A stretch of DNA of 61,366 bases, the filler included, from Hausera hauseri (lineage: Eukaryota), in NCBI GenBank assembly GCA_046269625.1. It is 11 parts of 11 records of this genome, joined end to end, with 100 filler letters (N's around TTAATTAATTAA, not from the genome) between each part and the next. Parts side by side here need not be neighbours in the genome. Positions count along the whole stretch, not along the records: positions 9,440 to 14,260 come from JBJURY010424365.1; 10 more parts are not named here. One strand, written 5' to 3'. The notes beneath the pieces were generated by a model. The model was not told the DNA's origin. It did not search any database and saw only the letters and a program-made list of their open reading frames with translations. Position numbers and translations under genes: made by a program. Below are positions 1 to 54,559 of this stretch, one piece after another (within the stretch, counting starts at the first letter, position 1; each line of letters begins with the position of its first letter).

Positions 1-3000
1 TTAATTGTGCTCCTCAAATAATTGGTTGATTTTTAGATGTGCAAACTTTACAGAGAATGCTTGGCTCAAATCCATGAACCTGAAAATTGCCACAGTATTA
101 TGATGAAATACTTTAGCCATATTTACAACAGGGTTCATTATTATATATGCCCTACATGTGAGGTAGTGTGTCAAACCAATTATGAAGACTTTTACAATGT
201 CCATAAACATCACTTGATTTCCTTCATCAAATCGAAAAAACCAATATTCAGTACCAATATGTTAATAATGACTTTCGTGCCAAAGGAAAATCAAAAATGC
301 AGTTCTTATGTGCAATACACAATCCTCAGAATTGCCGCAATACCATGAGGACACAAATTCAATAGGATCATCTATTATATCTGTCTAGGATATGAGGCTG
401 TATGTGATGGAGAATACATACAGTTTTATGAAGATCACAAACATCATTTGACTGATTTCACATAAAAGTCAAAGAAGTTCATCTTTAATGAACATAAGCC
501 AGTTGCACAGCTTGAAGTACTGCCGGATGCAGGACTAAAACGCGCATCAGGCCCATCAGACGCATCAGGCGTAGCGGCTCCATCAAATAGTCAAAGACAG
601 AGGCCAGTTAATGCTGCAGAATTAAAGAGGAAATGCCGCATATATATCATTGAAGCAACTGATCAAACAACCATCAAAGAGTTCCTGGAGTACACAGAGG
701 AAGAGTGAATTCTCCAGGATAACATAGCTGATCTCAAGACCCTTAAGGTTAATTTGAAACTTGAGGCCACATACGTCAATGTTGATGGCGAAGAGTCCAA
801 AGTGCCTTCAAGACTAGAAATAGACCCATTTTTGAGGCCACCAATATAGTAGAATGGCTGCATGAAGAGCATGCAACCTTGATCCGTGAAGCCGATGAGA
901 GCCAGAGTAAGAAGTGCGGATGGACTCTGGCAACCATCAAGAGATGGTTTGTGTATGTTCACAAGCATTCTCCCATGCGGGGTAGTTTATATATTCAGCT
1001 TCCGGAATGGATCGCTAATAAAAAAGCATGCATCAATGTCCTTAATAATGACAACATGTGTTTCATGTATGCCATTTTATGTAAACTCGTACGGCATCAA
1101 AAACATGCAGCAGATCGAGGTTGGCTATATAATGATCTGAAGCACAACTATGACTTCCAATGTATTAAGTTCCCACCATCTATAGATGAAGTAAAGAAGT
1201 TCAGTCGAATAAACAATATATCCATCAACATCATTGGATTGGATGCTGAGGAGAAATTCTATCCCTTGCAGATATATGATACTGAATTAGAAGATCATAG
1301 GGATCTGCTCCTACTAGACAATGGAGAAAAAAACATTATATTTGGATTAAGAACTTTGAGCATCTAGTCAGATCCCAAATTACGAAACACACAACAAGAA
1401 TCGAAATATGTAAACGATGCTTTTCCCATTTCAGTGGTGATACAGCAGTGGACAAGCTTGCAGAGCACAAAATTTACTGCAGCAACAATTACTGTGTAAG
1501 GCCAGAATTACCCAAGGAGGACTATATTGAATTCAAGGAGTTCGAGAAGAATATCAATGTCCCAATAGTTATCTATTGCGACTTTGGAGCTATTCTCCGG
1601 CCAGTTCACAGCTGCACTTCCAGTCCTCAACATAGCAGCACAAGGGCATACCAATATCATGAACTCTCATCGTATTGCATGTATGCCAAAGGCCTGGACA
1701 GTGAACCATTTCTATTCAGGGTTCCAGGCGCAGCAGCACATTTCATAAAACGACTTGAAGATATGGCTCATAAGCTTGAGAACATGCTTCAGCAACATAA
1801 GGATAATATGAGCATGTCGCGGAAAGAAGCTGAAGAATGGTGCCGGGCAACATGTTACTTGTGCGACAAGTCCTTCACCAAGTATAATCATAAAGTCAAG
1901 GATCATTGCCATTTTACAGGTGTATATCGGGGAGCAGCATGCAACAACTGCAATATGCGTTGCAAAACATGTATATATGTGCCTGTAGTGTTCCATAATC
2001 TCAGTGGCTATGCTTTCCATTTCATAGTCCGAGAATTAGACAACATTGATGGTAATATAGATGCGATCCCAAACAGTGAGAAAAAATACATCACTTTCAC
2101 CAAGCAAGTGGGCCGCATCAGACTTCGCTTCATAGGCAGTTTCCGTTTCGTGAGCTCGTCACTGGTCAATTAAATGAAGAACCTCCCTTCAGAAGAACAC
2201 AAGGAGACGAAGCGGTTCTTCCCTACTGCATTTGACCTCGTCAAGAGGAAAGGCGTGTTTCCTTATGACTGCATAACCTAATGGGGAAGACTGGATGAGA
2301 CCTTATTGCCGGACAAGAAGGACTTTTACAGTATCCTCTCTAATTGCCATATCAGTGATGTTGACTACCAGCATGTCCAGAACGTCTAACATACATTAAA
2401 ATGCAGAACATTAGGGGAATGCAGAGACATATACCTCAAGACGGATGTGCTTCTGCTGACAGATGTCTTTGAGAGCTTCAGGGATGCAACAATGAGACAT
2501 GCTTTGGATCCGGTTCATTTCTTTACGGATCCAGATGAGTTTGGCAGCAATGCTGAGATATACAGGTATTAGGCTGCAGATCATTAAGGATTACGATATG
2601 ATCCTTATGATCGAGAGAGGCATTAGAGACGAAATATGCCAAGCCATTCACCGGTATAGCGAGGACGATAACAAGTATATGGCCGAATACGACTCATCCA
2701 AGGAAACCTCATATATCATACTTGGATGCCAACAACTTGTATGGATGTGCCAGAAGCGTCCCATTGCCGTATGATAACTTCAAATGAGTCGAGAACCCTG
2801 AAAACATCCGTATATTAGACCTGGATCACGCTGGAGATACGAGATACATACTGGAGGTGGATATGGATTATCCTGCTTCCATCCACGCAAAGCATCAACA
2901 GCTGCCTTTCTTACCTGAGAGCAGGCCTCCGCCCATAAAAAGCATAGAAAGCTGCTATGTCATCTGGGTAATAGGGAGAGGTATGGACTTCGTACTACTA

Positions 3001-4090
3001 AGATCCACCGGACCCTATAGTTCAACCACTCCATGTGCCTGCAGTCATACATAGATCTTAATACGAAGCTGCGGACTAATGCCAAGAACAACTTTGAGAA
3101 AAACCAGTTCAAGCTTTACAACAACTCAGTCCTTGGCAAGACCATGGAGAATATCCGCAACAGGAGCAACATCGAACTGGTATGTGACTGGAATCGAGGA
3201 AGGAAGATTATTGCCAAGCCGAACTTCCACAGCAGAATCAGATATGTTAAGAACTTGGTCAGCATCCATATGCTGAAAACATCCTTGGTATTCAACAAGC
3301 CCATATGTGGGTATGGCAATCCTCGACCTGTCAAAGACCCTGATGTATCACTTCCACAACGACATCATGGTCCCCAAGTTTAAGTCTATGGAGCGGATGT
3401 ATATGGATACTGATCGTTTTATCTATCAGATCCATACAGTCTACATTTATAAGGACTTTGCCCAGTTGGCTCAACACATGGATACCTCGGATTATCCGAA
3501 GGATCATCCCAACAATTCAATTGCCAACAAAAAGGTCATTGGGCAATTCAAAAACGATGTGAATGGGGCAATAATATTAAGATTTGTAGCTCTCAGATCT
3601 AAAATGTATGCTCTAGACGTATGTGGCCAAATAAAGAAGCAGGCAAAAGGGGTTCAAAGGGCTACATTGGCCAAGAAGATTAGATTCAATGACTATGAGA
3701 GTTCTGCAGGAGCAAACACATCATATCAGAGATAAAACGGATCCAATCTATGTATCGTAACACAAACTGTAACCTTACAGAATAAAAGCCTAGATTGGAT
3801 GGACGACAAGAGGAGATCCTAAGCGATGGAATCCACACACTACCTTATGGACATGTGTCATTGTAGATATTGTTATACTTTGTTATTCTTTTGTTTAATA
3901 AATGTTGTATAGAAATATCGTGTTGTCTTCTTGATCAATAATGTGGAATATTGGATAAGGTCAAGAAAAACTAAGTAACTACTATATAGGATAAGGCCCA
4001 CTAATTTCATAATACATTTATTTAGTAACAATATAACTTTGACATAACGCTAAACACTTTTTATATGCACAATGTGAACCATGTTCACGA
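1..4090 (+). mobile_element. Decayed Polinton/Maverick (adintovirus-like) element fragment, copy 1
   Basis: Occupied by a protein-primed PolB pseudogene; colinear with copy 2 (19918-24523), including the 3' flank after PolB. Confidence 0.85.
37..3866 (+). pseudogene. Protein-primed family B DNA polymerase (pPolB) with an endonuclease-VII-like Zn finger insert; many stops and frameshifts
   Basis: Motifs RGSLYIQLPEWIANKKACINV, VIYCDF (ExoI), CYLC..KVKDHCHFTGVYRGAACNNCN, VFHNLSGY (ExoII), KGVFPYD, LDANNLYG, KLYNNSVLGK, YMDTD, KKQAKGV, DDKR, TLPYGH. Confidence 0.9.
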
Positions 4091-4190: not shown

Positions 4191-4612
4191 GAGCAAGATG
4201 TCAACTACGTCGAGTTGTAATTTTGAACCAATTTCTAAGAAATCATTTAGACACTTTCCCTTGTTCTTTGCAGCTGCGTCAAACACTATTCGATATTTTG
4301 TGGTATCACGATCGAACTTAACAACAGGAAAGTGTGGTAATAACCATTTCGTTTCCTTTTACTCTTCTTTCGATATTTTTTATGTACGACTTCTCCTCAT
4401 ATTCTTTAATAACTTTATAGTATTCCTCTTTTACTTTAATATCCTTATCTAACTTTTTTATTAGTAATTCCAGTCTTTTTTTCGCCATCCATGAAGAGTC
4501 AAAACCACTGACGTCTGGATGTTTCTCTTCCTTCCAGAGTAGCTTAACACAAAATCTATCTTTCTCATATTTTATTCCATTCGTTACTTTTTTTAATAAT
4601 TCAGTCTCTAAG

Positions 4613-5224
4613 CTATTTAACTCCGGTTTTTCCTGGAATCCTTGTTCCGCCTCCCATAGTCTGTTCCAATCCTCTCTTCACTTCATAGGTTCTTGTCCAG
4701 AATGTTCTAACGAAGTTGGTCCTTACTCTCTTTCTTTCATCTCCGATTACTCCAAGACATGTCCATCTAAGTGGGGTTAATCTGGCTATAGGATTGTTTA
4801 TTTTTCCTGCTATTTTCTTTATATACCTATGCAGGTGCATGTAGTTCGCGCCAATTATTCCATCAACCGATTTCGACGATTTTTGAACAGCGAACTTTAT
4901 TTCTCTCAAATGCGACCATTTGCTTTTCTCGACCGCCCAATTCACGGCCATCATTTTCCCAGTTGGATCATGAAGGACCAACGCTTCAAATGGGATGTTA
5001 GCCTTCCCGTTCTTACTTCGTAACTTCATTTTTACCCTCTCCATTTTCGATTTTGTTGTTCCTCCACCTACCACCATGACGGATACGTTTTCCAGACTAC
5101 CAACTAATTTTAATTGCTCTGGGACAGAACGTTTTACGAAGCATTCTGTACTCGCGTCATCTAACAACATACACACCTTTACTTTTCGCTCTCCATTTTC
5201 CAACCATACGTTTACAGTGCGCAA
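4613..5224 (-). pseudogene. BEL/Pao aspartic protease domain (DUF1758-like)
   Basis: LLDDASTECFV catalytic motif, WSHLREIKF, VDGIIGANY, PIARLTPLRWT. Confidence 0.85.
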
Positions 5225-5401
5225 TGCTATTTTATTTCCTGTCGGGATCTTTTCTGATCGTCAGGTCACGTAAGAGCTAACTTGGGCCTCCGTAACATCA
5301 CCTTCACATTCACCCTTTTCTTTCCTTAATTCCTCATCACCTTGCAAAGTATAAAATGTTCTTTCTTGTTTTTTGGATGTATTTTTCTTAGACGGCGAAT
5401 C

Positions 5402-5548
5402 ATGAGCATAACAACATTTTTCTCCATATTTTCAATTCCCTTTCACATGATACTTACAAACTTGCGTTTTACTGTTTCCCTCGTGAATATGCAGATATTT
5501 ACACTTATTTCCGAATTTGCAATTTCCGTTTTTCTCGAACTCCCAGCA
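5402..5548 (-). other. Two tandem C-x7-C-x5-C-x3-H (CCCH) zinc fingers in the Gag nucleocapsid position
   Basis: CWEFEKNGNCKFGNKCKYLH and CKYHVKGN*KYGEKCCYAH, where TGA at 5432-5434 occupies the second Cys position. Confidence 0.8.
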
Positions 5549-6715
5549 TATTTGGTTTTCGGTTTTGCTCATTGACTTAATACTATTATCCTTTTTTGTT
5601 TTATTTGGAATTGACGCCTCATTCCTGCTGGCATTTCTGTCTACATAAAAACTTCTTTGTGATTTTCTTTGAAATTCATGCTCTTTCGAAAGTGTATGAT
5701 TTTTATTATGAGCGAGAAATCGTTTTTCAACTGTCGTCTTATTTTCATCGTACGTCCGATTAGACTCATATTCTCTTCCTGGATTAAAGGTGTTTATACC
5801 TCTGATTCTTTTGATTGTATTTCTTGGGACACTTGCTTCCATCTCTACTCACAATTTTAACTCCTCAACTGTGCGATTTGACTTCTTTTCAGCAACATGT
5901 CTTTCCCATAATAATACTATGGACTCTGGGAACTTTTCCATTAGACTTTGGTACAACAGACCTCCACCTAATTCTTCCGTCCTCCCGAAATTTTGTAGTC
6001 TCACTGTTATGCCATCTAACAAAGCAACAAATCGATCTAGGCCTATGATGTCTTCTTCCTTGATTGATTTAAAACGCATCACTTCGGTCATAAAGGCGGC
6101 ATAACACCGTTGTTCTCCCCAATAATAAGAGTCAAGTTTTCCCATTGCAGCTTTATAGCCTTCTTGAGACAGGTCAAAGTTCTCAATTAATCTCTTCGGT
6201 TTTTCGTACAGGCATTGATTTAATTGCAATTGTTTGTAGATGTCAAACATTGACATCTTATGAACGCAGGTGTCAAACGTTGTCTTCCATTTACCATACT
6301 CTGTGACTATACCGCCAAACTTTGGGAGTTCTAACTTCTACAATTTCGGCAGTATGACCTTTGCCTTTATACCACTAACCGCACCTCTTGTTGTATTAAT
6401 TGCCGATTTGTTTTGCCTTAAGCTTCTTTCATAGATAACTGCGTTGGTCTTTTCGTTCTGCTCGTCTAATTTCTCTATTTCATTATCTAGTAATGTTACA
6501 TTCTCCTTCCTTTTTAATTTCCTGGCTGCGGTTGTCAATATACACAGTTCTTCTTGGACACTCGAAAAAACCTTCTCATAAATTTGATGGAATACGTTGT
6601 AATCATGTTCGTTTAAATTTACATCAATCAATCTTCTTCGAATCAAAGCCAATTTATTTATGAGTCTTTGTCGCTCGGCAATACGTTCTTCGAGTTCGTC
6701 TGCTGTTATTTCGCT

Positions 6716-6928
6716 TCCTCCTTTTGGCTAGAACGTTAATTGAAGTATTGTGCCGTTACTTAGGCTTTTCACTGCTTCATCGGTCCGTAGCGGCTTTCCG
6801 ACGTGTAATAGAATGAATTCCTCATTTATCCTCAAGTTTTTCTTTATATTCCCAATTAGATCCCAATATGACTGAGATTCAGTTAAGTCTACCACAGAAT
6901 TATGTCCGCCACAACGTATGATTACCTG
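6716..6928 (-). other. Ubiquitin-like domain ending in di-Gly, in frame upstream of BEL/Pao Gag
   Basis: QVIIRCGGHNSVVDL...FILLHVGKPLRTDEAVKSLSNGTILQLTF*PKGG; about 71 aa, resembling ubiquitin RLIFAGKQL...STLHLVLRLRGG. Confidence 0.7.
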
Positions 6929-8199
6929 TTTTCTTATTTCTCCAACTCTGTTTTCCGAAATCTTGTTTACCTCTTTTCCACTTATTCTTCCTATCTGATA
7001 CGGCAACTCTATTCCTCCTAATTCCCTATCTTCAAGAAGATTCGATATTTTTGAATTTGTACAATTAGTTTGTGCTTCTTCACTTAGCTTTTCAAACTGC
7101 TTCTCCACAACTTGAAGTTCCGGGCATCCAATGCTTTTTTGTAATTTGATCAATAATTTACGGCCACTTGCCTCAAACACGAGCCGTTTAGAACATGTTT
7201 CTTTGCGATCTGTTACAGGTGACCCTATCCGCTGAGGTTTATTCTCTATTTATTCAAAATCATAGACTCTCGATATATCTTCTAATTTTTTATCGCCTTC
7301 GGCGCAAGATTTCACGACTCTCCAATTTAGCGTCACCTCTGCAAAATAGTCACGGCGTTTCCTTTTATTCAATTCCCTACAGTCTCTTACCGTGCATATT
7401 GTGCAGAAGATTCTCGCTTTTGCTTCAACATTAAATCAGAATGAATAAGATCTGAAAACGAGGAGACGGACATACAGTATTTGTAAAAAAACTGCATTCT
7501 GTGGTTTGTGTCTGCGGATCACGGTGCAGAGCACAAACCACGCTCTGCTACCATAAAATGGAGGTTTTATATAGACGTTATGTAACGTGTCACCGTAAAT
7601 TAGAGATTTTATATGAAGTAAACATAGTGAATTATGCACATAAACCTCCAGATGAATGACAGGTTTGTCTCGGATATCACCTCTTGATATAATTCCTATC
7701 ATCTCTCCTCTGGGCACATACAAACTTTCTTTCAAGGTGTACGTTCCTTTACTTTTACTTGAAAAATATTGTATCAAACAACTGTTCAAACATAGACTCA
7801 TTACAAGGTTACGTATATTATCTACAATACAGCCTTTCTCTTCCATCGAATAACCGTATACGCACATACTCATTCTAAGACTATGTGTATCTTCCCTTGG
7901 TCCGAACATCATTAAATATGACTCAGTTCTTATTAGGCTCAATTTGCAAACCCATTTAAACCTCCAAATTCTCTTATTTAATGTATACCCATATGAAAAC
8001 ACATTAAATTGACTTATCCAAGCATACTCGGCTTTTGTTATCGCGGTATCTTTCCGCGGTGGAATGATTCCACCTTTAATTTGCTCCAAATCCAACACAC
8101 CGAATTTAACAACCATACAACTCCTCTCAACATCCGCGGGAACAAAAGGGAGATAATAACTATAATCCATAATATTTGTAGAACAACTTAACACATTAA

Positions 8200-9439: not shown

Positions 9440-9775
9440 CGTTTAGTTTGTTCGGCGACTACCGGATGTGTTCCTATCTCATGCATACCTACGATGCTTG
9501 AGCGGGGTATTCCCATTAATTCAACAATTCTATGGATGCGATATCCAGCGAGGATATATCCGTATAAACTGTGTTCTAACTCGGCCTGGACAAGTTTGAT
9601 GTCTCTGCCTGTCGTATCGTAGCATGTCTCGCGAACGCGTTTTCTCGGACTAATGATCGTACAATATACTTCTGTTCAGTTTGTTTCTCGAATTGAGACT
9701 TCCATTGAAATCTTTTGCGCATCATTCCCTTCTCCACAATTGATTGCTATGATTCTTGTATTTCTGACATCTTGC
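9440..9775 (-). pseudogene. REX4/ISG20-like DEDDh exonuclease fold with catalytic residues substituted (element A)
   Basis: Manual translation, absent from the ORF track: RIIAINCGEG..MEVSIRETN*TEVYCTIISPRKRV..TTG..LVQAELEHSLYGYILAGYRI..SIVGMHEI. Confidence 0.65.
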
Positions 9776-10418
9776 ACTAGTCTATACGATTGTAAGAATG
9801 TGTCCAAATCCTTTTGACATTTTTTGATAGAATTTCAAAGGTGGTAGTTGGATATAGGGATAATCGTCGTAAGTCACCTCAAACATCAGTTTTACAGGAA
9901 GGGCAGCTACTCGAAATTCTAATTCATAGTGATGCAAGTCTCCGCTACGTAGGCTAAAAGTACTAAATCTGTATTGCCCTCTGTTATTAGCGTTCCATTC
10001 TTGATCTTTGAGTCGATAATATATCTCACCGTATGCTAGGTGGATATAATTATTTTGGTGATGTTTGAGTGAGTATGCTATCCTATGTCCTATCTTCTTC
10101 CGTAATACCCTTTAGATTGTTAGGAATTCTACTAGTCTGATCGTACTTCACAAAGGTTTTCTCATGCAATTCGTAATGAATTTCTCGATATATGAATTTG
10201 GAATTTAGAAGGAAGACATATTTCTGAAGAAACTCGTCGATGCTATATCGACGTTCTTGACTGGTTCCTTTTGGTTGGTTGTCGATACTATATCGTTCGG
10301 GTTTGTGAATACTCTTTAATTGGAAGAATAAACAGTAAGGATTACCTTTACAATAAAGGATGGTCTTAAAATAAAACCAACTCTTTATTTGATGATAGGA
10401 TAACCCGCTCTGTAGTTG

Positions 10419-11816
10419 TCAGGTTATTTTATCATACGGATCAATAGGGGTTTCCAATTCCCTTAGTTCCAATTCTGTAATGTTAGGACGCTTAGAATGA
10501 TAGTTTTTAGCAACTAACCGAAAAATCGCAATTAGTGTAATAAGAACAAACGTTGACAGTACAAAAATGGATACGATCGGTAAAGTGATCAATCTCATTG
10601 GTGCTTGTGTGGTGACTGGAATTGTGATTTCATCGCCTATATTTTCATATGTATGCGATTCTTCACGAATTTCATCTAAGGTACGCAATGTAATTGTTTG
10701 GTTTTGTTTATCCTCTGTATATATTTGTACTATGTAATCAGATTGCGGTTTTAGCAAACTGCATTCTATCTGATAAGTGCTTTTAGGTAATGTTACAATC
10801 TGATTATTATAGGTTGTTCGGCAACTTATGTGTATATCGTAAGTTTGTTCCTCCTCTACAAAGAACACAATTTTAGATCGATACGCCGAATATTTAATAG
10901 GCATGCTTCCTAATTCTCTTTTAGGCACACTGCTTGACGTAGCGGGTCCCATAATAGCACTAACTCGAGTAGTCGGCTTTTTAATGGTTGTTTCTACTGG
11001 AATCCTCCATATTCTATTCTTCGGATAGTAAGTCCGCAAATTTTTGCTCGGTTTATTCGGTCTTACTTCATATAAGTCGAATTTTATTTTGTATTCTTGG
11101 TTTACTGGTAACTTACAACATGGGCATTGCACACATTCATGAACAGAACAGTAATATATTCTCAGGGTTTTCCCATTCACAGCTTGGAAAATGATACTAA
11201 TTTCTTGACTAAAAGTTAATCCTGTTCGAGCATCTATTTAAATGCATTGTTTTTCCTCGTTTACCGAGATTCCTTTGATATTTTCATCTAATAACCTTAT
11301 ATCTGGGTTGGTGGACTGTAGCATTTCGTCGGGCTTCTTTTCGGATGGCCTGGACCAATGGGGAATTACCAACTGAACTTGTGGGTTTACGTCGTTATAG
11401 ACTTCTGATGAGTCTGGTAAGTATAGTTGATAAGTGAGGATGTAAACATGTTCGAAATCGACGTCGCAGCACTGGGTATAATCTCCGGGTTCAAAGTCAC
11501 AGTTTTTCACTTCTTTCGTTGTTACATCGCATAGGACAATTTGAAATCTTCCCAAATCGCGATGCAGTCTCCAAGTTTTAAATCCGACACACATAGCGTC
11601 TGGCGAAAAGTAATGAATTGTCATTGATTTTAACAATTTAGTGTCTTCTTGTTTTTGGATCTCTTCGACTCTTGGTTTCTTTTCCGTTTTAATAATTTTC
11701 GATCTTGATTCGCTCTTCCGAATCCCGTATATATCTCCTAGGGTAGTTTTATCGTTCCACCATTTAGTTTGTGTTCTCGGGATATAAAAAGCAATTAACG
11801 ATAATGCTAAGATTAT
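10419..11816 (-). pseudogene. Type I membrane protein with FN3-like ectodomain in the env position (element A)
   Basis: Same frame as the integrase C-terminus. Hydrophobic ISYV*IILALSLIAFY, two Cys modules (KNC..CC..Y, WSRPS), S/T/P stalk, FN3 tyrosine corner LKPQSDYIV, TM LPIVSIFVLSTFVLITLIAIF, tail ending IDPYDKIT. In-frame stops at 11817 and 11238. Confidence 0.75.
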
Positions 11817-14260
11817 CTAAACGTATGATATTGGTCTAGCAATTATTGAGGAAGTTTTCGTCTCACGTTGGCGTAAATTGTACCGTTTATTGGGCCGTAT
11901 CTCCGTGTTGACAACTCTTTGTTCTGATACGACTTCTTCCTTTCCATTCTTGTTAATGTATACTGTGGTTGGCGTAGCTCTGGTAACTTCGTACGGTCCT
12001 CGGCCTGTACGGGTCAATTTTAATGATGTGCCTTTCTGGCTACTGGGTAATGTATATAAACCCAATTTTCTTCTTCTAAATCATGCGGTTTCGTTTTCTT
12101 ATCATATTACTTTTCAAACTGTTCCTCATATTCTTGAGATAACTCCTTGGGGATTTCCCAACATTTTTGTAATCGCATCTGTAGCACTTCTGCAAAATTC
12201 TGTTCTAAATCTTCGGGCTTCACTGTGTATGGCGTCATTCCTAAGTCTGTAGGCAGCACGGCTTCACGTTTATACATGATAAAAATGGTGTAAATCCTGT
12301 TGCGTGATTCTGAGTGGTATTAATTGCAAATTGAGTTCGTTCTAAAAATTTTTCCCAATCTTTTTGGTCATTGGCTACTACTGTTGAGAGTATGCGTATG
12401 ACGGTTGCATTCATTCGTTCAACCATTCCATTACACTGTGGGTGATACGCGGTAGTTGTTAATCGTTCGACTTCAAATATCCTGGTAATCTTCTCGAAAA
12501 GTTTACTAGTAAAATTTCTTCCTCGATCCGTTAATATTTGGTCTGGTGGTTCAAATGGACAAATGATTCTTCTTACTACCGCTTCGGCCAATGTTTCTGC
12601 CTTTTGATCAATTAACATTATTAATTCGACACAATGAGTTAATAGATCAATACAAGTTAAGATATACTTATTGTTCTTGTGGGTCGTAGGAAGAGGCCCT
12701 CCGATATCCATTGACATGGCTTGCATATGCCTAGCCGACACATTGATTGGTTTTTATTCGGCCATGTAGTTTTTCGTCTTCTTTTGTTTAGTTGCACATA
12801 CTTCACAAGCTTTTACCCAATTCTTTACATCAATATAGATACTAGGCCAAAAGTATTTATTCAATATTCTTTCTAATGTTTTCTTCCAGGACATGTGTCC
12901 TGCTAAATATGAATCATGTTCCGACATTAGCACTTCGGTTTGTAAACCTTTTGGAATAACTATCAGTTTCCTTCCTTTCCGTTCGTAATATAAAATACCC
13001 TCATTGCTCTTGTCATTTAGGACGCAGTATTTTTGTCCATGTCTGTATAAATGTTTCTTTAATTGTCGTCCCTTTGGTATGATATCCTTTTTAGGAAATT
13101 CTATAATCTTCTGAATGACTTTCTTTTTTCTTTGTTCTGTGGAAATTTTAATTGCTTTATCCATCGTTAAGATGCGTTGGCGATATATTATTTCTTTAAG
13201 TTTACTTTTCTTCATTATCATGATTACGCTTGTTTTGGTCTTTAATCTTGATAGTGCATTGGCATATACATGTTTATTTCCTGGTTTATACTGGAATTCG
13301 ATATTGTATATAGAGATTTCTTTGATCCATCTGTTAAGTCTACATGTCAAGTTATTTGCTCGGATTTTTAAATTCGCGACGGTTTTGTGATCAGTGACAA
13401 TTATAATTTTCTGCCTGTATACGTAAACGTTGAAATGTCGAAGTGCTTCTTTTACGGCTACAGTTTCTAATTCGGTAACAGAATAATTTTTCTCGGCCTT
13501 CTTTAAAGAACGTCCTCCATAAGCAATTGGGTGTTCTAATTCTTCATCTCTTCTATGCGCTAATTCATATCCAATGCCTTCTTTACTGGCGTCTGTCTTG
13601 ATTATAAAGGGTAAGTTAAAGTATGGGTACCGTAAAACAGGTTCGCTTGTTAATATCTTCATCTCGTCGAAGGCTTTCTGTTCGACGTCTGACCATTTCA
13701 ATTTAATTCCTTTTTTAAGCAAGCGATATAAAGGTGCATTAATTTTTAAATTATCTGGCACATAGATGGCGTAATATCCGCAGAGTCCTAGCCAGTGCCT
13801 TAACTCTTTCTGGTTTTGTGGTTTCATGCAATCTGATTTTCTGTTTAATAACGATTTATCTGGTTTCAATCCTCCCTCTCTAACTATATGGCCAAGATAG
13901 GATACTGAATTCTGAGCCCATTTACATTTCTTTGGAATTAATTTCAATCCGGCTTGTTCCAAACGAATCAGCGTGTGTTCAATATCCTTTAAGTGTTCCT
14001 TTACTGTCTTTGACGCTATCATTACGTCATCCAAGTATGCAAAAGCATGATCCAGTCCCATTAGAATTCTATTCATCATTCTTGTAAAGATGGCTGGTCC
14101 GGTAGTAATACCGAATGGCATGACATTAAATTCATAGACGTTATCATGTGTCTTAAACGCCGTTTTTTATCTTTCTTCGTCCTTCATTTCTACTTGCCAA
14201 TATCCGAATTGTAAATCCAGAGTGGTAAACCATTTTGCTCCTGAGAGTCTGTCTAAAACC
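11817..14260 (-). pseudogene. pol: Gypsy pol (RT-RNase H-integrase-GPY)
   Basis: ORFs 12754-14121, 12241-12741 and 11817-12065 with canonical motifs, separated by stops and frameshifts. Confidence 0.92.
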
Positions 14261-17003: not shown

Positions 17004-19817
17004 CTACTGATTTTTCCCTGTATACATGCTAAATGTGACTCTACGTGGTTTGTCTGTATGTGGTGTGTTTGCTTGCAGAGTTTGAAGTTGTGGAAAATTG
17101 TTGGATTTTGATGAAAGTGTTGTATCGTGCAAAGACGAGTTAGAATGAAGAGAAGGATAAGGTGAAGGAGGAAAAAAGATTGATGGAGACGGATAGTTAA
17201 AGGTATTCAGGAGAGTGTTAAAAGAAGAAGGAATGATAAAAGGTGCAGTGGCGGATGAAGGAAGAGGGACAAAAATAGGAGTAGAAGTAGGAATTATATT
17301 AAGGCGAAAGAAAAGTAGAAAATGAAATACGGGGAGTGGTAGAGATAGGAAGAGCGATAGGAATAAAAGTAAAAGGTGTGGAAGATGATGAAACGGTACT
17401 AGGAGCAGAAGGAGGAGGTGAAACTGGTGTAACAACAGATATAGGAACAGCAGGAAGTGTAGGTGTGAGAAAAGAGGTTGACGTGTCGATTGGTGAAGTG
17501 TCGTCGACAAAGAAGGTGGGCTTTAAGTTGGTGATATGCACTGTAAGTTTTTTGCCGTCTTTAGAAATAATAGCGTTATGTGAATGCAGCTGTATCAATT
17601 TATAGCGCCCCAGATACCGCGGCTGAAAACCGCACGGTGTCTGATTTTTTAGCCATACAAATCTTGCAGAATACAAATCTTCGGGTAAATATGTTTTGTC
17701 TTTATGAAGTAACATGCAGAACGAATCTTTGCTGACCGTAACGAAGTGATTTGTGCCACCCATATCATTTCATCTTTAGAAGTGCCGTCTAGGGCAGTTA
17801 GTTCGAATAATGATCGTACATGAGCTCCGAATAAGGCTTCAATAGGTGAGCATCCCGTAGCCAAGCAGAACAAACGGAAGAAGATTCGTCCAACTAGTGT
17901 TGGACTCTGCAAGAATTCTTAGTGACGTTTTCCATGTTCGGTGGAAACATTCTAAAAGGTCATTCGGTTGGGGGTGATAAGGTGTAGTATGTATGTGATG
18001 GATCCCCAATCGGTTAACAAGAGATTTTAACAGGTTGGATTCAAACTGTGGACCCTGGTCCGTGATGATGAAACAAGGTGACCCAAACCTGCTAATCTAT
18101 GTACGGATGAAAACGTCAGCTATAGTGCCGGTATTAGTGCTCCGCAGAGGGATGGCTCCTGGTCATCGCGAAAAACGGTCCATCATGGTGAGAATAAATT
18201 GATGGCCGTTGTCTGGAGGAAGAGGGCCAACAATGTCGATATGCACGGATTCGAAACGCGACGTATAGGGGAAGTGGAATAGTGGTGGCTTTAAATGCTT
18301 AGTTGTTTTATACTTTTGGCAATCCACACACTCCTTAAACTATGCCTGCACATAAGAACGCATTGACGGTCAAACTACTTGTCTGTGGAGTAAACGAAAA
18401 GTGGCTTTAGCACCAGAGTGGTGTAGCGAATATACACTATTAAATGCTTGCCTTTGCAACGGTGGTGAAAGGATTATTAAGGATTGACCTGGTTTGGAAG
18501 TGTCTAAAACCAAGCGGTCAACGATTATGCAAGACTTGAAAGAATTAAGCATGTCCTGAGGTGGCTGGTTCTGTTGAAGTTTGGCTTTCGTAAAAATTGG
18601 TAAAAAATTAATCGAAATAACTGACCGAGATAAAAAATCGACAACCAAGTTATTAACCCCGTTAATATGTTTTATGTAGAAGTTAAATGTCGACAAGTAT
18701 GATATCTGTCGTTCTTAGCGTGTGGAAGGATGTTTCATAATCATGATATTAAGTAAGGGTTTGTGATTGGTCTATATGGTAACTTGGCGCGCGACAAGTA
18801 GGTGGGAGAAATGCTTTAAAGCAAGAACGATGGTCAATAATTCTCGATCGAACGTTGAGTATCTAGTTTCAGGGGAAGTTAGCTTACGAGACAAAAATTC
18901 TAGTGGTTGATTTTTTCCCTTGTAGATCTGGTGGAGTACAGCATCTACTGCAGTGATTGAAGCGTCTGTAGTAAGGATGAGTTTTGCATCAGACTTGGTG
19001 AAAACTAGAATGTCGACGGTTTTAATTCCTTCGTGTAGCTTATTAAACTTGCCAACAAGTTCAGGTGTCCATTGGATTGGCTGATGTTTTTTGCCACTGT
19101 TTAAATTTGCGAATGGTGATTCAATGGTCAATTCAGAGCAATATGGTGCATATTTATGTATAAAGTGTAGTGTACCAAAGAAGCTGCGCATTTTTGTGGT
19201 CGTACGTGGTAACTGGATATTTTTAAGTGCTTCAACTCTGTCTGGTTGATGAGAGTAGCCGTCTGGTGAAATAACGTGGCCTAAAAAGTTGATGTGCTTT
19301 TTGAAAAAATGGCATTTGCCGAAATTGATTTGTAGGTTATGGTGGTTAAGGCGTTGGAATATTGCGCAAAGGTGTTCCTCGTGTTGTTTGGTCGAAGACA
19401 AAACGATCAGAATATCATCAATGTAAGGGTGCGCAAACGAAAAATCTGATCGAATCAAATCAATATGTGGCTGAAAGGTCTGTGTTGTATTTCGCAAACC
19501 GAAAGGCATAAACAAATACTGGTAAAGGCCAAAAGGTGTAGTGACAGCAGTTTTTTCTATGTCTTCTGGTGCCACCGGTATTTGGTGGTATGCTTTGGCC
19601 AAATCGATGGTCGAATAAATGATAATTAAATTAAGGCGATGCTGGATGTCCTTGATGAGTGGAAGAGGGTACTCATCAATGATGGTTAAGTTGTTCATCT
19701 GTCGGTAGTCACCGCGTGGTCTAAAAGTACAGTCGTTTTTTGTACAACATGTAAAGGTGACAACCGAGGAGATTTAGAACGGCGTACAATACCGGAGCGT
19801 TCTGGTTCAAGAAATTC
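17004..19817 (-). mobile_element. pol: Ty3/Gypsy pol, decayed (RT-RNase H-integrase-P/S/T-rich tail)
   Basis: IDLAKAYHQIP, TPFGLY, MPFGLRN, YIDD, TTDAS, YSTFDRELL, HIDIVGPLP, ITDQGPQFES, PRYLGRY. Confidence 0.92.
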
Positions 19818-19917: not shown

Positions 19918-22900
19918 GCGGTGCATATTACATACAGTTCTATTATGATCCCAAACGTCATTTGAGTCACTTCGCATCAAAATCAAAAAAAGCCATTTAT
20001 AATAAGCAACATAATATTGATGCATCTGCTTCGCAGTATGATGCTTCCAGTATTCAGCCTCGCATTATGCTTCTGGATTTGATGCAGCAAATGCGAAGCA
20101 TATTAGAGAATTTAAACGCGCAGCCGCATCATGCGCAGCAGCACCATGCACAGCAGCATCAGGCACGGCCACATCAGACACACTGGCTCCATCAAAAAGC
20201 CAAAGACGGCGGTCAGTTGATGCGGCAGCATTAAAGAGAAAATGTCGCAGATATGATATTGAGGAAACTGGTCAAACAACCTTCCATGACTTCCTCTTAT
20301 ACATAAAGGACGAGACAAAGAGATTTCTTCAGGGTAACATGGCTGAGCTCAAAGCCCTTAAGGTGAATATGAAACTGGAGGCTACATAAATAAATGTTGA
20401 TAGCGAAGAATCCAATAAGGCCTTCAAGACCAAAAATAGGCCCATATTGGAAAACACCAATATATCAGAATGGATGCAAGCGGCGCACGAGAAGGTGATC
20501 CGTGAAGCCGGGGAGAGCCAGGATAAGAAGGGCTGGTGCACTCTGGAAACGATCAAGAGATTGTTTGTATATGTTCACAAGTACTCTTCCATGCGTGGAA
20601 GTTCATATATTCAGCTCCCTGATTGGATCGCTAACAAAAAAACATGTGTCAATGTCCATAATAACGACAACATGTGTTTCATGTATGCAATTCTATGAAA
20701 ACTGGTAACGGATCAAAATCATGCTTCACGAGTTGGGCTATATAAAGATATGCAGCACAACTATGACTTCAAATGTATCAAGTTCCCTCCATCCATAGAT
20801 GAAGTTAAAAAATTTGGAAAAGTCAACAACATATCCATCAATATTTTTGGATTGGATGATGAGGACAAATTTAATTCCCATGCAGATATGAAATACTGAA
20901 TTGGAAGATCATAAAGATTTGCTCCTACTAGACGACGGAAAAAAAACATGTTTGGATCAAAGACTTTGAGCGTTTAATAAGATCACAAACTACGAAACAT
21001 CATGGAGAAAGAAATATACAAACGATACTTGCCCCATTTCAGCGGCGATGTAGCAGTATTGAAGCTTGCAGAGCAAAAGATGTACTGCAACAAAAATTAT
21101 CGTATCAGATCAGAATTTACCAAGGATGACTACATTGAATTCAAGGGGTTCTAGAAGGAGATCAAGGTCCCAATATTTATCTATTGCGACTTTGAGGCTA
21201 TTCTGCGTCAAGTTCAGAGTTTCATTCCTTATCCACAACATAGCAGCACAACAACATCCCAATATCATGAGCTCTCATCATACCGCATGTGTGCCAAAGA
21301 CCTGGACAGTGTACCATATCTATTCATGGGTCCAGGCGCAGAACCTCATTTCATGAAGCGACTTGAAAACATAGCTCATAGGCTTGGAGATATGTTGCAG
21401 CAGCATAAGGATAACATGAGCATGTCAAAGCAACAAGAAGAATAGCGCAAGGCAACAGCATGTTATATGTGTGACAAGTCCTTCACTAATGAGAATTATA
21501 AAGTCAGGGATCGCTGCCATTTTACAGACACATATCGAGGCGCGGCATGCAACAACTGCAATCTACGATGAAAAACATGTACATATGTGCCTGTAGGGTT
21601 CCATAATCTCAGTGGCTATGATTTCTACTTCATTGTTTGGGAATTGGGAAACATAGAAGGAAACATTTTTGTTATTCCTAATAGTGAGGAAAAGTATGCC
21701 ACATTTACGAAGCATGTTTGGAAAATCAGGCTCCGTATCGTAGCAGCTCCCGTTTCATGTCGTCTTCACTTGACAGTTTAGTGAAGAACCTCCCTGCAGA
21801 AGAACTCAAGGAGAGGAAGCTATTCTTCCCTACTACATTTGACCTAGTCAAGAGGAAATGTGTGTTTCCCTATGACTATAACATCATGGGAAACACTGGA
21901 TTAGACCTCATTGCCGCCCAAGAAGGACTTTTACAATATCCTCTCAGATAGCGATATCAGTGTTATGGACTCTCAGCATGCTTAGAACGTCTGGTATGCA
22001 TTCCAATGTCGAACAATAGGAGAATTCAGCGATATATACCTCAAGATCGACGTACTGCTGCTCACGGATGTCTTTCAGAGTTTCAGGGATGTTACGATGA
22101 AGAGCTATGCACATTTCGTTACGGCTCAAGGGATGAGATTGGAAGATATATAAGCTGAGATATACAGGTGTCCGGCTGCAGATCATAAAGGATTATGACA
22201 TGATCCTCATGATTGAGAGAAGCATTAGAGGCGGAATATGCCAGGCCATTCACCGCTATAGCGAGGCCAACAACATGTATATGGCCCAGTACGATCCAGC
22301 AAAAGCATCCTCATATATATCATACCTAGATGCCAACAACCTATTTGGTTGGGCAATAAGCGCCACATTGCCATATGTTGACTTCAAGTGGGTGGAACAT
22401 CCTGAAAACATTCCTATACTTGACCTGGATTCCATAGGAGATACGCGCTACATACTGTAGTTGAATATGGACTATCCGGCATCCATCAACACAAGGCATG
22501 AACAGTAGCCTTTCCGCCCTGATAGCAAGCCTCCGCCCCATGGAAAGCATAGAAAGCTGCTCTGCCATCTGGATAGTAGGGAGAGATATGTAGTCCACTA
22601 CACAGATCTCCAGCAGGCGGTTTAAAAATGGACTCCGCATTGCTAAGATTCATCGAGCCTGCAGTTCAGTCAGTCCATGTGGCTGTAGCCCTACATAGAT
22701 CTTAATACGAAGCTGAGGGCTAATGCCAAAAACGATTTCGAAAAAGATCAATTTAAACTGTATAAAAACAGCGTTTTTGGAAAGGCGATGGAGAATATCC
22801 GCAACAGGATTAACATCGAGTTGGTGTGTGAGTGGAAGCTGACAAAGATGATCATTGCCAAGCCCAATGTCCACAGCAGCACCACATATATACGGAGAAC

Positions 22901-23516
22901 TTGTTCATTATTCATATGCTGAAAACATCCTTCTAATTCAATAAGCCCATATGTGGGTATAGCAATACTAGATCAAAGACCTTGATGTACAAATTCCATT
23001 ACGGCATCATAGTCCCCACATTCAAGTGCATACAGCTGATGTACATGGATATTGACAGTTTCATCTATCAGATCCATACGGAGGACATTTATGAGGACTT
23101 TGCTAAATTAGCTCAGCATATGGATACATCTAACTATCCCAAAGAGCATCCCAACTATTCAATTACCACAAGAAATTACTTGGGAAATTCAAACCCGAGG
23201 TGAATGGGGCAATCATCGAGCGATTTGTAGCTCTTAGGTCCAAAATATATGCAATTTATGTATGTGGCCAATTAAAGAAGCGGGCTAATGGAGTTAAAAG
23301 AGCGACCTTAGCCAAGAAGATGAGCTTCAATGACTATGTTAGAGTTCTGCATGAACAAACTTACATCATACAGAGATGTAAAGGATCCAGTCTAAGGCTC
23401 ATAAGATTCAGATAGTAACATTGCAGAAGAAAAGCCTAAATTGGATGAATGACAAGAGGCAGATCCTGGGCGATGAAATAAGCACACTACCTCACGGGCA
23501 TTCTGAATTAATGTAA
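19918..23516 (+). pseudogene. Protein-primed family B DNA polymerase
   Basis: RGSSYIQLPDWIANKK, IYCDFE, FHNLSGYD, IRGGICQ..YLDANNLFGWA, YMDIDS, FVALRSK, KKRANGV; homologous to 37-3866. Confidence 0.9.
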
Positions 23517-45728: not shown

Positions 45729-45918
45729 GCAAAAAAAGAAATTAACAGAATTATTTTCAAACATTGATTTTTTGAACAAAACTTTCACTGCACAGATGAA
45801 TCCTTTTTTTTGTCTTAANNNNNNNNNNNNNNNNNNNNNNNNNNNNNNNNNNNNNNNNNNNNTTAATTAATTAANNNNNNNNNNNNNNNNNNNNNNNNNN
45901 NNNNNNNNNNNNNNNNNN

Positions 45919-48900
45919 TTTATTCCAGATACAATCTGTTGGCGTTTAGATCCAGTAACATTTTCTTCAACAAGAAATAATACAAAACTGGCTGGAATCA
46001 TTGATAGAGCAAAATTCAAAAATATAGATAATGATAACTCTAACGTCATTTGGCTCGTTACTTGATTCAATTGATCTTGTTTTGAATATACCAACGGGTG
46101 GTTGGATACGGCAATGCCATAAGTTGATGGGTTATTCCGAGATACGACTCTCGATCTCAGTAGTAAATTATCGAACATATTTGCATATGCGGGCATTGAT
46201 ACGTAACCCTTAGAATTAACCCAGATTCTCGTGTACGTTGTTTTCTTTCCAGACATTCGCAGAAATAATTGAAATGAGTGTAGAAAATTTGACGAATTTT
46301 GAGTATAATTGAAATAGGAATAGAGTGAAGGCCAGAATGATCCATTTACCAACATATTACAGGACTGTCCAAAGGAATCATTCAAGAAAAACTGATAACC
46401 ACCATACAGTTGTTGTTTGTAAAACATGAATTTTTTTATCAAATGATCAGAAATATTGTATCCGGTTAGATTATTTAAAATGTCTGAACTTTCCATTAAA
46501 CGTGAAGACGGTGTTGGTCCACCACTGGTTGGGTCCGAACATTGCTGCGTGCCCGTTTGATTACAATCGCAATCCGGTGTTTGCATTGGTATTGGATTAG
46601 AAGATGGACTTGACCAGAAATTTCTGCTGGCGTCATAACATTTGTAACCAGTTAAATTATAGATAGATGGTGCCATACAGCGAATGCCTGATTGAACAAC
46701 ATCCGACCCGTACGAATCACTCACACTGTCTACAGTAGGATCAGATACGATATCTTTACGATAAAATGTATAGAGATTGCTATATTGATTCCTGGGCATC
46801 ATAAGCCACGGATGGATTGTCATTGAAGGTTGATTCACGAACTTATTAGACGACTGTAGCACTGCAACCATTAATATTATCAAACATACAGGCAATATTA
46901 ATTCAGCCACAAATCCTCGAATATTTCGTTTTGTATAATGAAATCGTTTATATTGTAATGCCGCTATTTGTTGTTTAAATAAAGTGAAGCCACTCAATAA
47001 TTCGCATTCCAAATTAACAATAGGCGATTTTGCGGGGTTGTCTTTTATTATTCGATCTCTATCTCTCAGGCTCAATCTAGAAGCCGGAAGAGGTAAATCT
47101 CCGGAATCTGTCAAAATTCCTAAACCTTCGGAATAATCCGATTTAGTCGGGTCGTCGGCAACTTTCAAAAATACTTCTTCCAATGTTGTATCTGATAACC
47201 CGTACGTTGTCACGTTCAATTCGTTCAATGATTCGTCTAATTGTTTAAATAAATTAGAAAATTCCTTGGTTTCTTGATTCGAAATTGGAAGTATAATCGA
47301 AATTTGAGTCATGGTCTCTTCCACTATTCGAGCATTAGGTACAAAGTTCCTGACAAATTCTAAAACTTTTTCTGTTGACTTTGACGATTTCGATTTGACG
47401 AATTCTTCTTTCGTGTGCATATTCTTTTCCAAAATCAAATAGTATCCTTCTCCGAATTCTCGTTTGAGAAAAACAGACGACCCACAACATTTCAATTTCC
47501 CCTGAGAGATAATGGCAATTCTGTCACTAAGGTAATCTGCCTCATCCATATGATGTGTAGTCAACACGATTGTCCGGTCTGATGTACGAAACTTCATGAG
47601 AAGATCCCAAATTCCTCGGCGAGCAAAGGGATCTACTCCCGCTGTAGGTTCGTCTAGAAATATGACTTTAGATGCGCCAACAAAAGCCATGGCTATGCTT
47701 AATTTTCTTTTCATCCCTCCAGATAGTTTTTTTGAAAGCGAATAAAGTTTCCTTGACAACCCAACGTCTTCTACAATTCTCGGTATTTCTAAAGCAATTT
47801 CGTCGTTTGTCATGCCTTTTAATAAACCGTAAAAATACACATGATCCTCAACAGTGAGCATGTCAAATAAAATGTTATGTTGTGGACAGAGACCAAGAAT
47901 ATTCCGAATGGAGTCCATTTGGTTTCTGATGTCTTTGTGTAGAATAAATGCAGAACCGGATGTTGGTGGATAAATACCAGTGAGAATGGAAATTGTCGTC
48001 GTTTTGCCTGCTCCGTTGTGTCCAAGGAATGCCGTAATTTGTGATTGGTAGAAATTTAGACTTAATTTATCAACAGCAGGCTCTTTGGATTTGGGATAAC
48101 GTTTTGTTAAATTTTTTATTGCTATACCAACATTTAAATTTTCTGGTTCCATTTCTATTTTAAAGAGAGAATCAGTTGATAAGAGAAAATTTTCAGACGA
48201 GGAAATTTCTGAATGATCGCTGTACCCGCACCAATACCATTTAGTGAATAGGAAATGGAACTCCGAATTCACCACGAAAGACAGCCTCAACCTACCACGT
48301 AATGAGTAGGTAAATGACACTATCAGTCCACATCATAACGACACAATGACCAACACCGAAATTTAAGTTAAGGACGGTTATAGAACAAATTGTCGAAATG
48401 CACTCCAGTTGTTGTTTGTTCCAAATTGGCGATCACTAAGAAAGCATTACAAAGAGAAACCTGAGCAGAAAGACCTGATACATAATAAATTGGAGCAGTG
48501 ACGATATCTTGATTACGCATGATGATGGTGTAGAGCAAATAAAGAAGGTAGTAAATGACCCCTCTTGCAACTCCTGCGATGTTGGATCGGTTGAGAAAGA
48601 TACTAAACATAAAATATTGGCAAATAATTGATACAACATAAGAAAACAGTACAATAAAAACAACACTTGGAGAAGAGAATTCAAAGATTTTCATGAATTT
48701 GATGGTGAAAGTCAAGATTATAACGGAAATTGTCGTAACGATGAGAGAAGACACAAACCAGGCAGCCCAGTGGACAAAATTAGACAATCCCATTAACCGT
48801 ATAAATTTCTTTAGTCGTTTTTCTTTCTCGTAGGCAATGTTTTTGATAAGGAACGTGAAAGACATTACCCAGGAAATGACAAGAAATGGAATAAAATTGG

Positions 48901-49560
48901 AAATAACGAGGATAAATTTATCATCGACATAGCATGGATAAGGCATTATTTGGACACTAGAACTAGTTGTAACAGGCGTATTGTTGGATAGAATTTCAAT
49001 GAATGCATGGTCAGTTGCCTGCTACAGATATAGAAATCCACTCATGTAGTATTTCATATCAACGAGCGTGTTTATCCGAGGAATCGGACTGCAATAACGG
49101 TCGAGTACTTTCCCGTTAACTGTCAATACGCGATGTTGGTATGCGAATGGCGTATCTGAGCAATGTCGTATTTTCCACTGACGAGTCAAACAACCGAGCA
49201 GCGAAAGTACCATTGATCGGACTGTCGTTAAATTTATTAATGTCATCAGCGGACTGCAGTGGAATGAATTTATCCAGGACAGTTGAGTTTAACGTCGATT
49301 CAGTCCAATAAAAATGAAAGTGATTTGACGTAATTCAGTAATTTATCTAACGAGAATAAATGCCGCAGTAGAGGACAAATAGTCAATGTGTTATTTTGAT
49401 GAATATTGTCACATAATTTATGAATTATCTCTACAATAGCCTTGCACGGCTGTCTAATTGATCGATTTGACAATCGCCGCTGAATAACAGCAATTCGCAA
49501 TTTTTCCAAAATTGTCAATGGTTCAAATTGAATCGAAATCTGTAAATGTTCGAATTGTCA
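45919..49560 (-). pseudogene. ABCA-subfamily transporter (ABCA1/4/7-like), ECD1 end to TMD2 start; no introns evident; disrupted
   Basis: MPYPCYVDD, YEKEKRLK, GHNGAGKTT, LSGGMKRKLSIA, LDEPTAGVD, TTLEEVFL; stop in ITW*VEAVF, stop at 49022 and frameshifts near 48260-48370. Confidence 0.88.
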
Positions 49561-50639: not shown

Positions 50640-51581
50640 GCTTGTGGTAGGCACTACAATACACCCCGTGGCTGAGTTGAAAACCGTAAAGAAAAGATTG
50701 AAAGAAAATCCCGAGAACAAACAGATAATTTGCTTAATAAGTTTTTGTGCGTACAAGACGTTGTACTCCTTCGTTGTTTAGTTGTATGCGATAGGTACTG
50801 AAAGTAACGGATTTGTGACGTACATTCGCCGTGTTGTCTGACCGCTGGTAGTGTTTGGCAAAAGTGACATTAGCTTTAGTATGATTGGGTGTTGTGTCTG
50901 GAGAAGGCAATACAAAAGGTGGAGAAGAAGTGGTTGTAGATAAGTTATTCCAGTTTTTGGATATGGTTTTGGAAGGTAATAAGTTGAGAGATGAAGTAGA
51001 AATAGACGAAGGTATAAAAATAGGGTGTGGAGCAGAAATAGTGATAGAAGTAGGAGTGTATGGAAATGCCGAGATGGGGGCAGGAATGGAATTGATGGGT
51101 GACAATGTAGGCAAGAAACTGGAGCAGTGGAATGATGTTTGGTAGACTGGGGAATCGAAGTCGGGGTAGAGGTGGTTGCAGGGGTGAGGAATGATGTTGA
51201 TGTTTCGATTGGTGATGTATCGTCAACGTGAAAGGCGGGTTTTAAATTAGTAATATGCACTACAACTTCTTTTCCGTCCTTGAGGATAACAGTGTTGTGT
51301 GAATGCAGTTGCACCAATTTATACGTTTCTAAATATTGTAGCTGGAAACTGCACGGTGTCTGGTTTTTTATCCATACAAACTTTGCCGAGTATAAGTCTT
51401 TGGGTATGTAAGATTTGTCATTATGTAAGAGCCTAAAAAACAAATCTTTCCTGATTGTAACGAAATGATTCTGTGCTGCTCATATCCTCTCGTCTGTAGG
51501 AGCGGTTAGTTCAAACAATGACCGTACAGGGGTTCCGAATAAAGCTTCCGTTGGTGAACATCCTGTGGAAGTGGACGGAGT
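50640..51581 (-). mobile_element. Gypsy integrase 3' end, P/S/T-rich tail, PPT and start of 3' LTR
   Basis: Homologous to 16884-17900 (STGCSP.EALFG, PKDLYSAKFVW, HITNLKP); minus strand GGGGTGTAT then TGTAGTG at about 50658. Confidence 0.82.
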
Positions 51582-54545: not shown

Positions 54546-54559
54546 CCGGTTCTTATCTT

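Follow-up and report, generated by a model that had tools for sequence, protein, structure and literature searches.

The window that we analyzed is 61,366 nucleotides of DNA from Hausera hauseri (assembly GCA_046269625.1), made up of 11 short contigs that are chained via N spacers. Two of these contigs, each bounded by N spacers, are the subject of this report: element A, which is the entire contig at 9440-14260 (JBJURY010424365.1), and element B, which is the entire contig at 51682-57144. Both are read on the minus strand and have their parts in an identical order: reverse transcriptase (RT), RNase H, integrase, a GPY module, a signal-like stretch, several modules, a membrane helix, an IDP-x-D motif, a domain with the motif IPNNLKG, and a nuclease remnant. 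The initial annotation of this DNA had proposed that B shows A's order, and we confirmed the same domain succession; all of the motifs that it quoted are in place on the minus strand. Judging from these domains, A and B are decayed copies of Ty3/gypsy elements in an animal genome. We refer to the parts behind the GPY module as the cargo.

Two criteria for Ty3/gypsy elements (Metaviridae), the order of RT, RNase H, and integrase (as identified with Pfam) and a GPY/F module at the end of the integrase, are present in both A and B. (The GPY/F motif is named in the text of PMC5408684.) In A, the RT (truncated at the contig end), RNase H, and the zinc finger of the integrase lie at 12757-14260 (RVT_1, E = 5e-20; RT_RNaseH, 7e-28; Integrase_H2C2, 5e-19), followed by the integrase core at 12241-12753 (rve, 3e-13) and the GPY module at 11820-12080, which aligns to the corresponding piece of B (z 7.0). 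In B, the RT, RNase H, and integrase are spread over three frames at 54701-56874 (RT_RNaseH, 2e-35; RVT_1, 8e-14; rve_3, 8e-4). B's GPY module lies in a stop-free frame of 118 codons (54344-54697) that reads on into the signal-like stretch (54482-54538; hydropathy 2.5 over 12 residues) and the start of module 1. The pol regions of A and B are about 31% identical, and in a blastn comparison of A and B to the window, we found self-matches alone. Because both contigs are cut at both ends (in the RT on one side, and in or just behind the cargo on the other), gag, protease, the long terminal repeats (LTRs), the primer site, and the polypurine tract are not visible.

The first part of the cargo looks like a surface protein. 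In both elements, a signal-like stretch lies about 30-60 residues behind the GPY module, and there is one strong membrane helix; the modules between them have 60-80 residues each and are separated by Ser/Thr/Pro-rich stalks. (We called the signal-like stretches from hydropathy.) In A, the signal-like stretch at 11760-11846 reaches a hydropathy of 2.9 over 12 residues and has a stop codon at its front (11817-11819). Then come a Cys-bearing beta module that is likely of the fibronectin type III (FN3) or immunoglobulin (Ig) type (11415-11600), a second Cys-bearing beta module with a stop codon at 11238-11240 that is private to this copy (11064-11252), a membrane-proximal FN3-like module (10671-10910), a predicted membrane helix (10520-10592; hydropathy 2.8 over 19 residues), and a short tail with IDPYD and a stop codon at its end (10419-10519). 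In B, beta module 2 (53953-54135) is predicted to be a seven-strand sandwich of the Ig/FN3 type; a membrane-proximal FN3-like module (53551-53796) and a predicted membrane helix (53404-53460; hydropathy 3.3 over 19 residues) follow, and then basic residues and IDPID (53308-53322). B's helix, tail, and IPNNLKG domain are in a single frame of 304 codons. The proposal that a single minus-strand frame runs through the cargo thus suits B in part, as it is stop-free from the GPY module into the signal-like stretch and then has one frame change and one stop, while A would require read-through of three stops (11817-11819, 11238-11240, and 10419-10421).

From module 2 through IDP-x-D, an alignment of 242 columns, the cargoes of A and B are 19% identical. 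If the ectodomain, helix, and tail are compared together, the Smith-Waterman score is 78, and none of 1,000 shuffles scored as high (z 7.0). None of 2,000 shuffles scored as high with B's membrane helix held fixed (z 6.3), and 18 of 2,000 did so with both helix and tail held (z 4.3). The IPNNLKG regions also match (z 5.1; 0 of 1,000 shuffles), and the shared 7-mer IPNNLKG has a chance expectation of about 1e-4 to 1e-3. The match of SPRKRV to SPRERV is not significant (260 of 1,000 shuffles, z 0.6). With global alignments of hand-cut modules, whose boundaries were picked after the motifs were known, three of 15 pairs had z scores of 3.0-3.6: A's module 1 and B's module 2 (3.5), A's module 2 and B's module 2 (3.0), and the two membrane-proximal modules, A3 and B3 (3.6). 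A's modules 1 and 2 compare to each other at z 2.3. Finally, the best frame of each cargo contains 19 stop codons, as compared to 48-61 in the other two frames, so both cargoes were once coding. Overall, the match between the cargoes is weak yet above chance. The initial annotation's view of a shared, old, once-coding cargo is supported by the common order, the shuffle controls, and the stop counts; its alignment of the two cargoes stands for the ectodomain, helix, and tail taken together and for the IPNNLKG region, and is not significant for the ectodomains alone and for SPRKRV/SPRERV.

Evidence for the fold of the ectodomain comes from B only. When we searched Atlas with B's unbroken frame of 292 residues, all 10 of the best family-bearing matches shared a family or clan with FN3/Ig-like leads (scores of 0.86-0.88). 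A single-sequence model of these 292 residues is all-beta, including the membrane-proximal module, and has two clusters of strands, with a predicted local distance difference test score (pLDDT) of 36. With this model as the query, the top of the 42 matches listed by Foldseek are tandem FN3 pairs, from growth-hormone receptor, contactin, integrin beta4, neogenin, and the interferon-gamma and IL-6 receptors. VIA aligns module 2 of this model with seven-strand sandwiches: the best match is a chain of the IL-21 receptor (Z 5.9, root-mean-square deviation 3.0, 76 aligned), and 13 of 48,161 chains reach a Z of 5 or more. VIA, Foldseek, and Atlas do not tell FN3 and Ig types apart. There is no viral fusogen among the 42 Foldseek and 50 VIA matches listed for the B model, whose pLDDT is 36. 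Similarly, Pfam gave no match to an env or fusion-protein family for the 10 cargo frames (E cut-off of 1) or for the two read-through proteins (E cut-off of 10). The fold leads are each weak, yet the predictions agree on an Ig/FN3-type sandwich, and none of them points towards a fusogen. We conclude that the ectodomain likely consists of about three FN3/Ig-type domains. The two cysteine modules that had been annotated do exist, and they probably repeat the beta-sandwich build of the third module; the FN3/Ig leads and the lack of a fusogen match also support the proposal of a receptor-like rather than a fusogen-like build.

The second part of the cargo begins with the IPNNLKG region. In A, this region (9782-10418, with the motif at 10107-10127) is broken near 10060-10090, and the cover by related contigs (see below) falls at 10064-10092. 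In B, the domain (52600-53007, with the motif at 52885-52905) is predicted to be all-beta (model pLDDT of 36), and its leads from Atlas are lectin-type sandwiches, all with scores under 0.9. B's domain lies behind a second hydrophobic signal-like stretch (53023-53079; hydropathy 2.7 over 12 residues) that has no clear counterpart in A, and it has six sequons in 136 residues, as compared to 1.9 expected (23 of 5,000 shuffles; the region was chosen post hoc). A's region has neither sequons nor a second signal. These features fit the lumenal side for B and the cytosol for A, so the idea that the IPNNLKG domain is a cytosolic effector is not supported in the form in which it was put forward.

By its motifs, the IPNNLKG domain could be read as TNF-like or AlkB-like. 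For the latter reading, a profile of five bacterial AlkB proteins (2-oxoglutarate/Fe(II) oxygenases) gave a score of -1.6, and 211 of 367 reported shuffles (500 were run) scored as high; hhalign gave a probability of 0.1%. There is hence no AlkB signal, in a test with little power if the copy is remote and dead. We took a match of the domain to ATP synthase gamma (E = 0.0024) to be chance, as the target is helical, which disagrees with the all-beta model, and A does not back the match. Within A, at 10236-10297 and 10030-10200, a short motif (RYSID) occurs twice where the cover by related contigs is low, and two pieces of the IPNNLKG region are weakly alike.

The last part of the cargo is a REX-like nuclease remnant: at 9440-9800 in A, with a private stop at 9676-9678 (another letter in 1,220 of 1,233 depth), and at 52011-52509 in B, in two frames. 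B's piece has just one match among 177,635 PDB sequences, to small RNA degrading nuclease 1 from plants (SDN1; E = 0.063). The piece from A has no nuclease match among the PDB sequences, and Pfam's RNase_T is not reported for the cargo frames. In both copies, the first acidic pair (D-x-E) of the REX/SDN1-type DEDDh exonucleases is missing at its expected place, which we take to be 9733-9741 in A. Hence the description of this part as a pseudo-exonuclease seems apt: in A and B alike, what is left is REX-like and lacks the first acidic pair.

To separate the decay of one copy from traits that are shared, we used two sequencing runs that hold related DNA. From run X1, 13,370 contigs aligned on A, and 816 did so from run X2; all 30 bins of A were covered, mostly at 85-95% identity. 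X1 is possibly the window's own sample, the contigs of these runs are short, and read depth is not copy number. There was no RNA dataset among those listed with related sequence. The stop at 11238-11240 has another letter in 954 of 1,058 depth (38 contigs); at this stop and at those at 12754-12756 and 9676-9678, roughly 90% or more of the depth shows a different reading. This implies that these three stops are private decay of the A copy. In contrast, the stop at 10419-10421 and the expected place of the acidic pair (9733-9741) show no difference from the relatives among the best 40 of 100 differences, whose share goes down to about 70%. If the differences are ranked by share, as we infer, then the letters of the stop at 10419-10421 appear to be common to many related contigs, so that a membrane protein of the A type would have just a short tail; and the loss of the nuclease's active site would predate the death of the A copy. 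This argues against A as one polyprotein, and the second part of the cargo (IPNNLKG and the REX-like fold) is probably a separate reading frame in A. By codon position, the differences in A's nuclease and middle frames are 10/2/11, which puts two of 23 at the second position. We also noticed that at 10383-10566, which includes A's helix and tail, related contigs match at far greater depth than elsewhere in the cargo, and there are loose ends at 10390-10392. Other families may share this piece alone, or it may contain an RNA signal.

We did not find relatives of either cargo in large sequence collections. For B, there were none among 3,658 candidates from a word search of 5.8 billion sequences, none in 1.84 billion representatives, and none in viral contigs. 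For A, there were none among 1,431 candidates when the same 5.8-billion word search was compared to shorter proteins, and none among 95 pattern matches in JGI metagenome contigs. A search of viral contigs with the pol alignment also found none. PHROGs and NCBIfam, with 10 pieces each, gave nothing above the cut-off; the best was phrog_18896 (unknown function; E = 0.002).

The pol of A has 85 long relatives with 29-42% identity, none of which is listed with fn3 or RNase_T. Among the 80 of these that have an integrase match and were scanned, just one, P0057, has hydrophobic stretches behind the integrase. P0057 represents a cluster of five members (ENA/JGI proteins) and has an intact single frame that runs from RT through integrase and a signal stretch to a V-type Ig domain (E = 2e-5; Pfam Ig_3, 0.024) and a membrane helix. 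Because P0057 is intact, the layout of pol, signal, beta domain, and helix can exist unbroken. P0057 has no sequence match to the cargo of A or B and is not near either of them in the RT tree, and a scan for P0057 loci yielded 10 generic RT contigs, none carrying its tail. P0092 and P0093, like P0057, are intact Gypsy polyproteins that end in a signal, a V-type Ig domain, and a membrane helix. Another protein, P0008, has a chuvirus-type gB glycoprotein (Pfam, E = 9e-75) ahead of protease and RT, which is the known env-pol order.

We built quick trees of RT-RNase H with 84 of the 85 relatives and with 24 hand-picked relatives. In the latter set, constraining A and B together gave a likelihood 13.35 log units higher than the free quick search (approximately unbiased test, p 0.81). 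These trees neither speak against a single origin of A and B nor demonstrate one.

What might the cargo do? The best reading is a captured attachment or decoy protein. More specifically, we give close to an even chance to A and B being two long-diverged Ty3/gypsy families that share a cassette behind the integrase, with a predicted type I membrane protein that serves in attachment rather than fusion. Ribosomes would continue past the end of Pol through an internal signal peptide, and cleavage by signal peptidase would release the surface protein to the secretory pathway, with Pol staying at the membrane. Capsid budding would then take place at the sites of the surface protein, and the vesicles in which the capsids leave would adhere to target cells. 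The likely source of the ectodomain is a host gene for a cytokine receptor or an adhesion protein, captured in the distant past. The IPNNLKG beta domain and the REX-like fold likely bind RNA or a host factor without cutting.

Several observations weigh against this attachment reading. Neither contig holds an LTR, so the placement of the cargo inside the element relies on adjacency and on the related contigs. In A, there is a stop between the GPY module and the signal (11817-11819). Behind the stop at 10419, the differences from related contigs have no excess at third positions (4/9/4 by codon position in A's frame), so A's linker there may not be coding as drawn. A and B form long branches that are not joined in the two free quick trees, and a local alignment of their ectodomains alone is not significant (86 of 1,000 shuffles, z 1.5). 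As for the fold, no Pfam family, fn3 included, scored above the cut-off in the 10 cargo frames (of 16 frames scanned); a third of shuffled proteins yield an equally uniform list from Atlas; both of the fold models, for B's ectodomain frame and for B's IPNNLKG domain, are single-sequence models with pLDDT of 36; the best E value from Foldseek is 0.029, and none is under 0.001; and a VIA Z of under 6 indicates a common arrangement.

A protein of the same origin and build could instead act on the host cell as a decoy receptor or signalling mimic, dampening the host's response and never entering a particle. The best fold leads are indeed cytokine-receptor ectodomains, and A's tail is short with a tyrosine motif at its end, which is presumably of the endocytosis type. 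Also, Burro elements carry apoptosis and ubiquitin modules that are read as host-manipulating in the text of PMC6431247. But cytokine receptors are the commonest tandem-FN3 structures, the identities are just 8-15%, and co-assembly is a better fit to the env position and to the fusion with Pol that is seen in B and P0057, so we consider the decoy unlikely. We give slightly less credence to a cargo of mere passengers, that is, host mRNAs that were acquired by template switching, with related host genes picked up separately by A and B and with no function for the element. The window does hold intron-free frames beside a Gypsy relic (see below), and the trees do not establish the monophyly of A and B. 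On the other hand, three unrelated parts occupy the same place in the same order, and in B this is in frame with pol; related contigs span the whole cargo of A; just two of the 23 differences in the nuclease and middle frames fall on second codon positions; and neither cargo has a host-like relative that we could find.

The cargo might also be a very divergent viral envelope: either a fusogen rich in beta strands or one half of a two-part system, responsible for attachment, with B's IPNNLKG domain as the partner chain. This would account for the env position, the signal, the paired cysteines, and the membrane helix, and B's second signal-like stretch does lead a domain with six sequons, as in a two-glycoprotein precursor. 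However, Pfam gave no env or fusion match here, even though it recognizes the gB-type env in P0008; the structural searches listed no fusogen; the modules are short and repeated, with Ser/Thr/Pro stalks between them; and A lacks the second signal and the sequons. We view this envelope as quite improbable, a little more so than passengers.

If whole copies bear it out, a receptor-like protein kept at the env position of two families whose pol is about a third identical, along with an unrelated intact case with an Ig domain, suggests an overlooked class. We speculate, and regard it as possible but doubtful, that there is a third class of Ty3/gypsy env-position genes: FN3/Ig adhesins derived from host receptors, fused to Pol via an internal signal peptide, and acquired repeatedly (an FN3 type next to a dead RNA nuclease in A and B, and a V-type Ig in P0057). 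With such adhesins, particles would dock on other cells and pass to them with no need for a classical fusion protein. This raises the question of how a retroelement employs a host-type surface protein: to dock, to load vesicles, or as an immune decoy. A nuclease fold that is kept without its active site would add a second candidate for counter-defence, on the RNA side.

Other parts of the window contain a variety of features. The mitochondrial contig at 24624-34507 has a pancrustacean gene order and may stem from an organism other than the retroelements' host. Long, intron-free, partly broken frames at 45867-49334, which from their motifs we take to be ABCA-like, are likely retrocopies; the same contig has a Gypsy relic (50734-51479) that resembles 17004-17769. 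Two copies of a decayed element, about 80% alike, lie at 800-3700 and 20400-23340, and their frames presumably belong to a protein-primed DNA polymerase, whose motifs they resemble. Decayed gag-protease frames at 4191-7250 are, we assume from their motifs, BEL/Pao-like. Finally, an intron-free open frame of 728 codons (57930-60116) has coiled-coil and acidic parts.

It is useful to compare A and B to other Ty3/gypsy elements with extra genes. In a survey of 1,512 elements by Chary and Hayashi in eLife (PMC13524379), all of the env genes are reported as F-type or gB-type, and the words fibronectin, immunoglobulin, lectin, and exonuclease are absent from the main text. As the baits were known env genes, this survey could have missed a non-fusogen. 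Like the errantiviruses described there, A and B come from invertebrate genomes and have a predicted type I membrane glycoprotein downstream of a Ty3/gypsy pol; unlike errantiviruses, they have no F or gB match and have a nuclease remnant downstream. The Juno and Vesta elements of bdelloids also have a DnaQ-like 3'-5' exonuclease as cargo behind pol, in their third open reading frame (ORF3; Rodriguez et al. 2017, PMC5408684). As described in that text, this ORF3 is an RNase D-like DEDDy protein that stands alone, with intact acidic residues and no membrane domain, whereas the remnant in A and B is REX/SDN1-like (by a weak match), lacks the first acidic pair, and lies behind a receptor-like protein. 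The same text describes small ORF3s with a membrane helix and of unknown fold in bdelloid elements.

The giant planarian elements Burro and GYPSM1 resemble A and B in having many host-like modules and an env region in frame within one polyprotein (PMC6431247). In Burro, the env resembles a fusion protein and is placed between gag and pol, and the extra modules named in that text are BIR, BCL2, MATH, and ankyrin, not FN3 or a nuclease. Another parallel is the Ty3/gypsy elements of Phalaenopsis, which carry AlkB, an enzyme-derived cargo that is thought to act on RNA (PMC9289625). That cargo is described as an active demethylase in a plant host, while the IPNNLKG domain of A and B has no AlkB profile signal.

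Nuclease cargo of Gypsy elements is thus already in print (PMC5408684), and to call A and B a new retroelement system was an overstatement. In the papers that we searched, we found no FN3- or Ig-type gene at the env position; an entry may exist in catalogues such as Repbase, Dfam, or GyDB. Taking the weak folds, broken copies, and missing LTRs into account, A and B appear to be a real and new variant of the cargo-carrying Ty3/gypsy elements, and what would be new is the receptor-like protein at the env position. A parallel in build is P0057, whose intact Gypsy pol runs in frame into a signal, a beta-sandwich domain, and a membrane helix. P0057 has one V-type Ig domain, whereas A and B have about three domains that are likely of the FN3/Ig type.

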